Part shown: positions 1 to 6,002 of the stretch, piece by piece | Layout of the letters: each line of letters begins with the position of its first letter | How positions within the stretch are numbered: the first letter of the stretch is position 1 | IMG/VR virus record: IMGVR_UViG_2740892231_000004 | Reading direction: 5' to 3' (one strand) | Length of the DNA stretch: 14,199 nucleotides | Source of the DNA: a virus | Taxonomy: Duplodnaviria > Heunggongvirae > Uroviricota > Caudoviricetes | Program-made: the position numbers and the translations under genes | Notes under the pieces: generated by a model | The model's input: the letters and a program-made list of their open reading frames with translations, nothing else | Database searches by the model: none | Told to the model about the DNA's origin: nothing

Positions 1-1
1 T

Positions 2-832
2 AACCCGAATCTCGGTTATTCGGTGGATGAGGCTTTTCTGTACCGGGAGTACCGTAAAGCCCGGGAGGCTGGTGAGGAAGCATTTCGTGGCTTCATGTCA
101 AAACACGCCAATGTGGAAATTGGTCTTGCCCTGCGTTCTGACCGCTGGGCGGGTGCGGATTTCTGGGAGCAGCAGGGCAGGCGCGTCAGCCTGGACGATA
201 TCCTGCAGCGCGCTGATGTGGTGACGGTGGGGATTGACGGCGGGGGCCTGGATGATCTGCTGGGAATGTACGTGATTGGCCGTGACAGGGAAACCCGCGA
301 ATGGCTGGGCTGGGGCCATGCCTGGGCGCATGAAACCGCGGTGGTCAGACGGAAGAGTGAGGCATCCCGTTTTCAGGATTTTGTGGCCTGTGGAGACATG
401 ACGATTGTCCGTCGGGTCGGGGATGACACGGCGGAAGTGGCGGAGTATGTGCGTCGTATTCATGAGGCTGAGTTACTGGATCATATCGGTATTGACCCGT
501 CAGGTGTGGGGCAGATTCTGGATTCACTGGTGGAAGCCGGGATCCCCGACGGAATTGTTGTGGGGATAAGCCAGGGCTGGAAGCTGGGCGGGGCCATAAA
601 AACCACCGAGCGCAAACTGGCTGAGGGAGTACTGGTGCATGGTGGTCAGCCACTGATGGCCTGGTGCGTTGGCAATGCCCGGGTGGAGCCGAAAGGTAAC
701 GCCATCCTTATTACCAAACAGGCCAGCGGACGGGGGAAAATTGACCCGCTGATGGCGCTCTTCAATGCGGTATCCCTGATGTCCCTGAATCCGGAGCCGA
801 AAAAGAAAGAATATGCGGTTTTTTTCATATAA
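2..832 (+). CDS. Terminase large subunit, C-terminal nuclease part (5' end outside window)
   Basis: Frame is open from position 2 to TAA at 830-832. Translation carries an RNase-H-like terminase nuclease signature (VTVGIDGGGLDD ... GIDPSGVGQ ... KIDPLMALFNA). At 269 aa it is too short to be a whole TerL. Confidence 0.85.
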   Translation, partial: NPNLGYSVDEAFLYREYRKAREAGEEAFRGFMSKHANVEIGLALRSDRWAGADFWEQQGRRVSLDDILQRADVVTVGIDGGGLDDLLGMYVIGRDRETREWLGWGHAWAHETAVVRRKSEASRFQDFVACGDMTIVRRVGDDTAEVAEYVRRIHEAELLDHIGIDPSGVGQILDSLVEAGIPDGIVVGISQGWKLGGAIKTTERKLAEGVLVHGGQPLMAWCVGNARVEPKGNAILITKQASGRGKIDPLMALFNAVSLMSLNPEPKKKEYAVFFI

Positions 833-858
833 CCCTGTTCACCCTGTAACCATCATGG

Positions 859-878
859 ACCGCTGCGGCGGTTTTTTT
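859..878 (+). terminator. Short GC hairpin (ACCGC-tgcg-GCGGT) followed by T7 tract, directly upstream of the capsid-gene SD
   Basis: Stem 859-863 pairs with 868-872, 4-nt loop, then TTTTTTT at 872-878, then AGGAGG at 885-890 and GTG at 896. Short stem, so termination efficiency is uncertain. Confidence 0.4.
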
Positions 879-895
879 ATTTTCAGGAGGCTGAT

Positions 896-2833: not shown

Positions 2834-2848
2834 GTCTGATAAGGAGGA

Positions 2849-2868
2849 CGGGAGGCGTGCGCCTCCCG
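2849..2868 (+). promoter_or_regulatory. Perfect GC-rich stem-loop (GGGAGGC-gtgc-GCCTCCC) 16 nt after the capsid stop, no U tract
   Basis: Inverted repeat read directly from the sequence. Possible transcript-stabilising or attenuating hairpin in the 211-bp capsid-portal spacer. Confidence 0.3.
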
Positions 2869-2877
2869 TAACAGGTT

Positions 2878-3099
2878 ATGGCAAAGATCCGATATCTGCA
2901 GGGCACGCATGATGCCCGGGCCGGGGATATCCGTGATGTGGCACAGCCGTGTGCGGAGGTGCTGGTTCGCCTGGGAAAGGCGGAGTACATCACGGTGCGA
3001 CGTCCGGCAGGTCAGAAAAAGAAACGTGATGCGGAGCATGGCGAATGTGGAACCTTTTACGGCGAACCCGAAAAAACCAGAAATCAGGACGTGACGTAA
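2878..3099 (+). CDS. Hypothetical small protein (73 aa), may be spurious
   Basis: ATG ORF filling the unusually long capsid-portal spacer. Weak SD; overlaps the portal start by 55 nt in another frame; no recognisable motif. Confidence 0.25.
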   Translation: MAKIRYLQGTHDARAGDIRDVAQPCAEVLVRLGKAEYITVRRPAGQKKKRDAEHGECGTFYGEPEKTRNQDVT

Positions 3100-6002
3100 G
3101 AGAGGCGGGCTGGACCAGCCTGTTTCAGGCGGTGGCTGAGCCCTTTTCCGGCGCCTGGCAGCAGGGCGTGAAAGCCGATCCTGAAGCCGTCCTCTCCTTT
3201 CATGCGGTGTTTGCATGTATTTCGCTGATATCCCAGGATATCGCCAAAATGCGGCTGCGTCTTATGCAGACGGATGCGCAGGGGATACGCAGGGAAACGC
3301 GCCGGGGGGATATTGCCCGCCTCTGTCGTCGTCCCAACGCCCAGCAGAACCGCATCCAGTTTTTTGAACTGTGGCTGAACGCCAAACTGCGTCACGGCAA
3401 TACGGTGGTGCTGAAAATCCGTAANNNNNNNNNNAGATGCGCATGGGATACGCAGGGAAACGCGCCGGGGGGATATTGCCCGCCTCTGTCGTCGCCCCAA
3501 TGCCCAGCAGAACCGCATTCAGTTTTTTGAACTGTGGCTGAACGCCAAACTGCGTCACGGCAATACGGTGGTGCTGAAAATCCGTAATGCCCGGGGGCAG
3601 ATCAAAGAACTGCGTATTCTGGACTGGAACCGGGTTGAACCTCTGGTGGCGGATGACGGCGAGGTGTTCTACCGCATCACGCCGGACCGGAACTGCGGGA
3701 TCACTGAGGCGGTGACGGTGCCTGCCCGGGAAGTGATCCACGACCGGTTTAACTGTTTTTTTCATCCGCTTATAGGGTTGCCGCCGGTGTATGCCGCCGG
3801 GCTGGCGGCCACGCAGGGGCATCATATTCAGGAAAATTCGACGTCTTTTTTCAGAAATGGCGGCAGGCCGTCCGGGGTGATTGAGATCCCCGGCAGTATT
3901 ACGGAAGAAAATGCGAAAAAACTGAAGAGCAACTGGGACAGCGGGTATACAGGCGAAAATGCGGGGAAAACGGCCATTCTGAGCAACGGGGCAAAATACA
4001 ACCCCACGACGTTTTCACCGGTGGATGCGCAGACGGTGGAACAACTGAAGATGACCGCTGAAATTGTCTGTTCGGTGTTCCGTGTCCCGGCCTACAAGAT
4101 TGGCGTGGGACAACCGCCTTCCAGTGACAACGTGGAGGCGCTGGAGCAGCAGTATTATTCTCAGTGCCTGCAGACGCTGATTGAGTCCATTGAACTGTTA
4201 CTGGATGAGGCGCTGGAAACGGGGGAAAACGAGAGTACGGAATTTGATGTCACCACGCTGCTGAGAATGGACAGTGAGCGGCGCATGAAAACGCTGGGGG
4301 ATGCGGTGAAAAATACGCTTCTCACGCCCAATGAGGCCCGTAAACGGGAGAACCTGCCGCCCCTGGCCGGCGGTGATGCACTGTATCTTCAGCAGCAGAA
4401 CTACAGTCTGGAGGCGCTGTCCCGTCGTGATGCCCGTGAGGATCCGTTCGCGTCGACCGGGAAAACGGTCTTAGCGCAACCGCCTGACGGCGCATCTGAC
4501 GGTAATAAGGCAATCAGTGAAACAGAGCATGATGCGGTGAAAGCGATGTTCAGGGGGGATACTGCGAAAATGACGGAACGGGAACTGTCCATTATCCGTG
4601 CGCTGGGTGAAGAATTTTCCGCAGTGCTGGCGGATTTACAGCGCACATTTGAGGGGAAAATAGCCGCGCAGGCACAAACGTTTGAAGAAAAACTGGCTTC
4701 CCTGTCTGTGGTATTACAGAAGTGCGTGACGGGCGATGATGTGCGTCCGATGCTTGAGCAGATGGTGAAGGAGGCGGTAAGCCATATCCCTGTTCCGCGT
4801 GACGGTCGTGACTATGATCCCGATGTTCTGCAGAAGGCGGTGAATGATGCTGTCGGGAAAATACCGGTACCGGCGAACGGTAAAAGTATTACTCCCGATA
4901 GTGTGCGTCCGATGATTGAGCAGATGGTGAAGGAGGCTGTAAGCCATATTCCTGTTCCGCGCGACGGTCGTGACTATGATCCCGATGTTCTGCAGAAGGC
5001 GGTGAATGATGCGGTCGCAAATATTCCGCAGCCGGCGGACGGTAAAAGTCTCACCCCGGATGATGTGCGTCCGATGCTTGAACAGATGGTGAAAGAGGCA
5101 GTGAGCCATATTCCTGTTCCGCGTGATGGTCGTGACTACGATCCGGAAGTACTGCAGAAGGCGGTGAATGATGCAGTCGCAAATATTCCGCAGCCGGCGG
5201 ACGGTAAAAGTATCACCCCGGATGATGTGCGTCCGATGCTTGAACAGATGGTGAAAGAGGCAGTGAGCCATATTCCTGTTNNNNNNNNNNGATGTGCGTC
5301 CGATGATTGAGCAGATGGTGAAGGAGGCGGTAAGCCATATTCCTGTTCCGCGTGATGGTCGTGACTACGATCCGGAAGTACTGCAGAAGGCGGTTCTGGA
5401 TGCGGTGAGTGCCCTGCCGGCTCCGCAGGACGGGCGTGATGCCACGGCNNNNNNNNNNAGTGAAGGAGGCGGTAAGCCATATTCCTGTTCCGCGTGATGG
5501 TCGTGACTATGATCCCGATGTTCTGCAGAAGGCGGTTCTGGATGCGGTGAGTGCCCTGCCGGCTCCGCAGGACGGGCGTGATGCCACGGCACTGGAAATA
5601 CACCCCGCCATTGACGATCAAAAATCCTTTCCCCGGGGCACGTATGCCACACACCAGGGCGGACTCTGGCGGGCGTATGAAAAAACGCACGGGATGCGGG
5701 GATGGGAATGCCTGGTTGACGGGGTGGCGGATATTGACGTCAGCATGACGGGTGAACGGTTGTTCTCTGTGGTGGTCCGGCAGAGCAGTGGCCAGCGTAC
5801 GGAAAAAACATTTTCCCTGCCGGTGATGCTCTACCGCGGTGTGTTCAGAGCCGGTGAAACCTACCACCCCGGCGATACGGTGACATGGGGGGGCTCGCTG
5901 TGGCACTGCAACAGTATGACCGGTGATAAACCCGGAGAAGCTCATTCATCAGCCTGGACCCTGGCTGCAAAACGTGGGCGGGATGCTGGAGGCGGAAAAT
6001 GA
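3045..6002 (+). CDS. Portal protein, HK97 family, with long C-terminal repeat-containing extension; frame broken by three 10-N scaffold gaps
   Basis: ATG 3045 with GGAG 8 nt upstream. Portal motifs: AVFACISLIS, PNAQQNRIQFFELWL, FFRNGGRPSGVIEIPG, YTGENAGKTAILSNG, FRVPAYKIG, LLRMDSERR, TPNEARKRENLPPLAGGD. Track ORFs 3045..3530, 3568..5310, 5294..5497 and 5409..6002 are pieces of one gene. Stop TGA 6000-6002 overlaps the next start (ATGA). Confidence 0.75.
3272..3586 (+). repeat. About 152-bp near-identical direct duplication flanking the N gap at 3425-3434 (probable unmerged contig overlap)
   Basis: 3272-3424 and 3435-3586 both encode DAQGIRRETRRGDIARLCRRPNAQQNRIQFFELWLNAKLRHGNTVVLKIR with a few mismatches. 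Copy 1 ends exactly at the gap. Confidence 0.8.
3425..3434. other. Scaffold gap (10 N)
   Basis: Run of n in the sequence. Confidence 0.95.
5281..5290. other. Scaffold gap (10 N) inside tandem repeats
   Basis: Run of n; sequence restarts at a repeat-unit boundary after the gap. Confidence 0.95.
5449..5458. other. Scaffold gap (10 N) inside tandem repeats
   Basis: Run of n; 5316-5448 and 5459-5590 are near-identical. Confidence 0.95.

Follow-up and report, generated by a model that had tools for sequence, protein, structure and literature searches.

The 14,199-nucleotide (nt) stretch of viral DNA analysed here (the window; IMG/VR record IMGVR_UViG_2740892231_000004, with all coordinates given as window positions) contains a phage head module in which the gene for the prohead protease and major capsid protein precedes the portal gene. 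This capsid-before-portal order is genuine; misassembly does not explain it, and nor does a rearrangement unique to this sequence. With high confidence we regard the layout as inherited and fixed across a broad proteobacterial clade of HK97-like head modules. The window itself is, in all likelihood, the late (virion) operon of an Escherichia coli lambdoid prophage of the BP-4795/2851/YYZ-2008 type. Every long open reading frame (ORF) of the window lies on the plus strand, and the order is large terminase subunit (TerL), protease-capsid, a small ORF, portal, and then the connector and tail genes.

Family scans bear out the gene identities and the order (TerL, protease-capsid, small ORF, portal) that had been proposed in a preliminary description of the window. 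The TerL gene is clipped at the window edge, leaving its C-terminal nuclease part (2–832; PF20441 TerL_nuclease, E 1.8e-9), which aligns with ORF55 of phage BP-4795, annotated ‘terminase large subunit’. It is followed by a single ORF of 645 codons (896–2833) that encodes an S78 prohead protease, a linker and an HK97-type major capsid protein, as recognized by Pfam, TIGR01554 and phrog_617. The product matches Peptidase_S78 (PF04586) at residues 48–152 (33.9 bits versus a cutoff of 21), Phage_capsid (PF05065) at residues 386–635 (52.5 bits) and TIGR01554 (major_cap_HK97) at residues 204–584 (76.5 bits, cutoff 27.5). The protease part scores 46.8 bits with TIGR01543, under the cutoff of 59. The small ORF (2878–3099, 73 amino acids) matches phrog_829, a family of unknown function (E 3.7e-39). 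The HK97-family portal gene (3045–4572), which is interrupted by a scaffold join, is identified by PF04860 on both of its pieces and by TIGR01537.

The annotated records of lambda and HK97 confirm that both phages are organized differently. HK97 has the order TerS, TerL, portal, protease, capsid, Ad1, and lambda has Nu1, A, W, B (portal), C/Nu3, D, E. The preliminary description placed the portal directly after the large terminase in both phages; this is correct for HK97, but in lambda gene W lies between the two. The canonical HK97 succession of TerL, portal, protease and capsid is not what the window contains. The lambda-type head set (W, the B portal, the S49 protease C with nested Nu3, D and E) is likewise absent; the window genes match the HK97-type families S78, PF04860 and PF05065.

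The window is a scaffold with N runs solely at 3425–3434, 5281–5290 and 5449–5458, each of 10 Ns. The first join (3425–3587) consists of 10 Ns followed by a 153-bp re-statement of 3272–3424; 3272–3424 and 3435–3587 differ at 5 of 153 positions. On the BP-4795 locus, window positions 2–3424 map to 3001–6423 and positions 3436–5280 to 6272–8115, that is, the contig ends overlap by 152 bases. The two portal ORFs (3045–3530 and 3568–5310) are a single gene, and the split appearance of the portal is an artefact of scaffolding. Once 3435–3587 is collapsed onto 3272–3424, the portal is colinear with BP-4795 ORF58. PF04860 (E 7.7e-61) is matched at profile positions 2–75 by 3045–3530 and at positions 70–321 by 3568–5310, and an intact portal homologue scores 350 bits with TIGR01537 (portal_HK97; cutoff 112). 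The second and third joins lie inside a 162-bp tandem repeat array (see below), and all three fall within the region that had been called portal. Draft E. coli assemblies break and duplicate sequence within this multi-copy module, giving apparently split or over-long portal genes.

These joins raise the question of whether the gene order, too, was produced by contigs misordered in a draft genome with many paralogous prophages. The module occurs at a median of six places per E. coli genome, and the mismatches in the overlap at the first join suggest contig ends that derive from different copies. However, the two junctions on which the order depends, 832–896 and 2833–3045, are free of Ns, as had been noted, and consist of uninterrupted sequence, so the visible joins cannot account for it. 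The stretch 2–3424 is colinear with the complete BP-4795 genome without a single gap at 99.2% identity, and this colinearity with finished records rules out the misassembly of 800–3100 that had been envisaged. The order is, moreover, identical in finished chromosomes and in all of the IMG/VR loci described below. We therefore regard the probability of an assembly or scaffolding artefact as close to nil.

The synteny comparison with related prophage genomes that had been proposed as a check returned the same order in every relative that could be scored, establishing the order as real and removing the suspicion of an anomaly. Region 1–6100 matches 94 phage records at 90–99% nt identity, and 91 of them cover at least 80% of the query at one place. 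The best records reach 93.4–98.2% identity with 86–92% coverage of the TerL-to-portal region. The matching records are Stx1a-, Stx2a- and Stx2c-converting phages, BP-4795, 2851, YYZ-2008, 1717, Lys8385Vzw and others. Among complete E. coli genomes, 1253 of 5426 contain the region. Over 1–6100, BP-4795 (Marienburgvirus), 2851 and YYZ-2008 (Pankowvirus) and paralogous prophages of enterohaemorrhagic E. coli (EHEC) are 93–98% identical to the window at the nt level, and the three phages share its order: HNH, TerS, TerL, protease-capsid, small ORF, portal, ORF59-like, Ad1, Hc1, gp10. The HNH gene sits upstream of TerS in BP-4795. The succession HNH, TerS, TerL, major capsid (protease fusion), hypothetical, portal, Ad1, head closure, gp10, tail terminator, major tail is annotated in complete BP-4795, in 2851 and YYZ-2008, in Lys8385Vzw and in three finished E. 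coli chromosomes. In contrast to the BP-4795 and 2851 records, the window has scaffold gaps, an overlap stated twice and a repeat copy number that the assembly leaves unresolved, and it carries an ompC-like porin gene.

Elsewhere the order was scored by tblastn with BP-4795 proteins. The IMG/VR loci that bear the capsid gene have the same order on a single strand in 80 of 80 cases, with zero exceptions. A one-genome-per-species collection yielded 29 loci from other Proteobacteria, with capsid identities of 32–76%. TerL lies upstream and the portal downstream of the capsid gene in 26 of these, from Enterobacter, Kluyvera, Citrobacter, Pantoea, Erwinia, Rouxiella, Hydrocarboniphaga, Marinobacter, Snodgrassella, Chelativorans, Hyphomicrobiales and Caulobacteraceae. 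The remaining three could not be scored and none contradicts the order: L022 and L024 are clipped at a contig end, and the capsid match in L029 is fragmentary.

Isolated phages of hosts other than E. coli have the same layout, namely Pseudomonas PAJU2, Burkholderia vB_SBP39 and Moraxella Mcat4. PAJU2 (Detrevirus), vB_SBP39 and Mcat4/Mcat6 read TerS, TerL, protease(-)capsid, small ORF(s), portal, (ORF59-like), Ad1, as in the window, although their capsid identity is only 37–48%. In the PAJU2 record gp03 is noted as a ‘prohead protease fused capsid protein’; at the position of ORF59 lies its homologue gp07 (30% identity, E 3e-30), which shows the ATGA overlap as well. Protease and capsid are encoded by separate genes in vB_SBP39 and Mcat4, and these two phages have no ORF59-like gene, as is also true of Snodgrassella prophages.

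In the light of these relatives it is very improbable that the order arose recently, for instance by a transposition of the capsid gene, in this prophage or in the Stx phages of E. coli alone. Such an origin could draw on the mosaicism of the window near the Ad1/Hc1 boundary: Hc1, gp10, the tail terminator and the major tail protein are 43–74% identical to those of HK97 (gp10 74%, major tail 68%), whereas the head proteins are just 23–29% identical. Yet the order is kept at 32–55% capsid identity in beta-, gamma- and alphaproteobacterial prophages and in the Pseudomonas, Burkholderia and Moraxella phages, including members in which protease and capsid are separate. Since it is found in distant and in unfused relatives, the arrangement is old and predates the fusion. 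The disparity between head and tail-proximal identities indicates that the head module of the window is a lineage of its own, coupled to an HK97-like tail. The likeness to the head module of HK97 (gp1–gp7) is broad, and comprises the portal (TIGR01537), the capsid (TIGR01554), the His and Ser of the S78 protease, the HNH/TerS/TerL packaging set, and Ad1, Hc1, gp10, tail terminator and major tail in the same succession. The differences lie in the portal, which in the window comes after the protease/capsid, in the in-frame fusion of protease and capsid, and in two additional genes beside the portal, a small ORF and a repeat-rich gene.

The preliminary description had treated the order as non-canonical and possibly anomalous, and had named its being the norm for a well-described phage group as grounds for abandoning that view. 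Since it is the norm for such a group, the very common and well-catalogued Shiga-toxin-type prophages of E. coli and their relatives, the view is not supported. The order is in fact already known, from database annotation, from the PAJU2 record note and from a single sentence in PMC2669165. That study describes the head-region gene organization of the Sakai prophages Sp6, Sp9, Sp10 and Sp12, which may carry this module, as unlike that of lambda (Asadulghani et al., 2009; PMC2669165). Publicly annotated EHEC prophages and Stx phages have shown the arrangement for some two decades, and it carries little weight as a discovery. It does illustrate that model phages follow the order terminase, portal, protease, capsid by habit and not by rule.

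The protease-capsid ‘fusion’ probably works as a nested gene pair, judging by its sequence and that of its homologues. The gene opens with GTG behind the Shine–Dalgarno (SD) sequence AGGAGG, and its BP-4795 homologue is annotated ‘major head protein/prohead protease’. In the protease part, His53 (QHD) and Ser110 (GLSVGF) align with His65 and Ser114 of HK97 gp4, although the His requires a one-residue shift from the BLAST alignment. The capsid part has a predicted helical N-terminal domain resembling a delta or scaffold domain. The model for prohead protease/major capsid fusions, NF045541 (scaf_prot_MCP2), describes the same architecture as that of the window gene but a different sequence family; the window product scores 52.6 bits against a cutoff of 525.

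A putative independent capsid start lies within this ORF on the plus strand (1457–1474), where an in-frame AAGGA (1457–1461) precedes an ATG (1472–1474) encoding Met193; it is supported by conservation among homologues. Met193 begins the sequence MNIGEQIKSFENKRAAL, slightly upstream of the match to the HK97 capsid model. At the Met193 column of the alignment (within two codons), about 26 of 28 aligned homologues have ATG, GTG or TTG together with an upstream SD-like 5-mer. As background in these ORFs, an SD-like 5-mer lies upstream of 3.6% of codons, and the combination with a start codon occurs at 0.36%. The residues encoded just upstream of the column vary (HKEKTI, KKGNNS, IKGK-N, PQEG-N, PKEGTT, PREGR-D). 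That the SD and the start codon are retained while the residues change would be difficult to account for unless the nucleotide signal were under selection. In the Snodgrassella prophages, vB_SBP39 and Mcat4, the separate protease and capsid genes adjoin in the same order, and the stand-alone capsid genes begin exactly at the Met193 column. The internal SD and the ATG at 1472 thus suggest that the capsid protein is also translated alone.

On the most straightforward interpretation, the stop codon of an ancestral protease gene was lost and the capsid start signal was retained under selection. Initiation at 1472 would then supply capsid-only protein as the major (bulk) product. The full-length, GTG-started polypeptide would be a minor product in which the active S78 protease reaches the prohead attached to the N-terminus of a capsid subunit. 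C and Nu3 of lambda provide a functional analogy, in that the protease reaches the prohead via a C-terminal part shared with an abundant, internally started assembly protein. The two systems are not homologous: in lambda an S49 protease shares sequence with the scaffold, whereas in the window an S78 protease shares it with the capsid protein, from a start that is predicted. The same gene could also yield a single self-cleaving polyprotein, without internal initiation, so that each capsid subunit carries its own protease. One uninterrupted ORF behind a strong AGGAGG and GTG start, intact catalytic residues and the acceptance of protease-capsid fusions as an annotation class (NF045541; ‘capsid and protease fusion’ in actinophages) are all compatible with this possibility. 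We nevertheless find it doubtful, given that the ancestral capsid start has kept its SD and start codon in nearly all homologues despite the varying residues around it.

In lambda a single late transcript covers the late genes. The genes of the window, all on one strand, would be transcribed together in the same way if they behave like other lambdoid late operons, with protein–protein recognition driving assembly and translation signals setting stoichiometry. Under such transcription, assembly need not follow the succession of the genes, and a historical origin is the best reading of the layout. The order might instead be adaptive, the position of a hairpin-flanked capsid gene upstream of the portal serving as a stoichiometry device that lifts capsid over portal expression. 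The protease/capsid gene is indeed flanked by stable hairpins on the plus strand. A GC-rich, terminator-like hairpin followed by a T run lies between it and TerL (857–874; consensus scan; RNAfold −10.3 kcal/mol), and a strong GC hairpin directly follows the capsid stop codon (2848–2869; RNAfold −18.9 kcal/mol for 2836–2876). The HK97 record has putative terminators annotated after the portal and capsid genes, one of which is equivalent to the 2848–2869 hairpin, and the order is kept across large distances. On the other hand, terminator-like sites in the window are not enriched over shuffled sequences (4 found, 5.7 expected), and HK97 and lambda reach the same stoichiometry with the opposite order. 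Tightly linked, co-adapted genes are also expected to keep their order without any selective role for the order itself. An adaptive order is, on balance, improbable, and we retain the historical explanation. The small ORF that follows the second hairpin overlaps the portal start by 55 nt. It has a tblastn match at the same position in 21 of the 29 other-species loci and is listed as hypothetical in the BP-4795 and PGAP records.

Several points weigh against the picture of an old, inherited order in a co-expressed module with a nested capsid gene. The homologues are phylogenetically related, and the counts given above therefore overstate their independence. The mismatches in the overlap and the drop in identity to BP-4795, from 99.2% left of the first join to 95.7% right of it, suggest that different paralogous copies of the prophage were combined in a chimeric scaffold; because all copies have the same order, the order would be unaffected. 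Internal initiation of the capsid protein is inferred from sequence, and co-transcription of the late genes by analogy. A full-text literature search, finally, found no paper that explicitly discusses the capsid-before-portal order in this group.

Downstream of the portal, 4570–6002 is a homologue of BP-4795 ORF59, which comparison with relatives identifies as a separate second gene in most of them and not as portal. BP-4795, Lys8385Vzw and nearly all of the other-species relatives have a portal ORF of about 455 amino acids ending in AAA TGA. Its stop codon overlaps (ATGA) the ATG of the second ORF, which lies in the −1 frame and starts with MNERELS(L/I)I(K/R). In the window the two are fused by a run of six Gs (G6; 4553–4558), where two-ORF relatives including BP-4795 have five (G5). 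G6 moves the last portal codons into the frame of the second ORF (ATG at 4570). G5 is present in 47 and G6 in 24 of the 80 IMG/VR loci, and both states occur in phages described as infectious. The fused form, which the window shares with 2851 and YYZ-2008, is annotated as a single ‘portal protein’ of 699–861 amino acids in these two phages and in E. coli 2017C-4109. It is also the form modelled by PHROG 2271, and PGAP calls the two-ORF form ‘frameshifted’. A programmed −1 frameshift at the junction, for which BP-4795 offers CTG AAA AAA TGA, was considered and rejected, because conservation does not extend to the A run: ACC, GCC or ACA precedes AAA TGA in most relatives, with a plain ATGA stop/start overlap. 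Should experiments confirm them, the G-run-dependent portal fusion and the conserved internal capsid start would tell something, if modestly, about phage assembly.

The second gene contains the tandem repeat array that holds joins 2 and 3 (4735–5540; repeat unit 162 bp or 54 amino acids; TRF period 162, 91% matches; BLAST offsets versus BP-4795). Copy number differs among relatives, with about five in BP-4795 and about two in O157 PV15-279. In the window assembly it is not fixed, as short reads cannot resolve such an array. Many IMG/VR contigs stop a few kb past the capsid gene, probably at this array.

The ORF59-like protein has a long N-terminal helix, Pro-rich helical 54-residue repeats and an invariant C-terminal beta domain with a CBM5/12-like motif; in the window, the ORF at 5409–6002 has a CBM_5_12 match under the gathering score (E 6e-5). 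Database names of its homologues are inconsistent (‘portal protein’, ‘gp6-like head-tail connector’, ‘FIVAR domain-containing’), and PF28083 is listed for them. An identity as a second gp6-like connector, the NCBI name of many homologues, was discarded after profile–profile comparison with the Ad1 alignment gave a probability of 0.1%. Matches to DUF4244, TetR_C_35 and FliG_N in the repeat region were dismissed as low-complexity or helical-repeat noise (best-stretch counts of 0, most under cutoff). The AlphaFold model has a mean predicted local distance difference test score (pLDDT) of just 60, and with this model Foldseek found no match in the PDB at E ≤ 0.001. Local matches of 45–50 residues only were obtained, to the chitin-binding module of Serratia ChiB and to a baseplate protein of an Anabaena injection system. 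The fusion protein gave a single weak match to a capsid among PDB sequences (E 0.0017).

Very tentatively, and with little confidence, we propose that the ORF59-like protein is a structural element anchored to the portal. The G5/G6 run would switch between non-covalent (ATGA-coupled) attachment and covalent attachment as a portal fusion of about 700–860 amino acids, and the number of repeats could set a length, for example of an internal portal barrel or ruler or of neck fibres. Long-tailed Stx phages and lambdoid prophages of O157 Sakai are reported to have prolate (elongated) heads, particles of which this module is a possible source.

The head module ends with the head-tail adaptor Ad1 (gp6-like; 5999–6325), identified by PF05135 (E 1.5e-7) and annotated as Ad1 in BP-4795. 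Family scans assign the genes beyond it to a head completion protein (Hc1; 6335–6685), a gp10-like protein (6682–7128), a tail completion protein (7125–7469), a tail tube protein with an immunoglobulin (Ig) domain (7466–8251), the adjoining tail chaperones G (PF06222) and T (PF06223; together 8218–8945), the tape measure (8993–12235) and gpM (12228–12569). A low-GC porin gene (12768–13922; PF00267, E 6e-144) is ompC-like, has 37–47% GC and lies between tail genes M and L. No record of the phage collection covers at least 80% of 12200–14199 at one place, and none has the porin at this place. By contrast, 92 complete E. coli genomes each cover at least 80% of the same stretch at one place, the best matches being 99.7% identical. 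The porin gene is a moron in the tail module. The tail tube ORF is probably over-extended at its 5′ end, as the HK97 major tail protein aligns from residue 24 with 68% identity; the C-terminal end of the tail tube protein is an Ig-like domain (PF13927).

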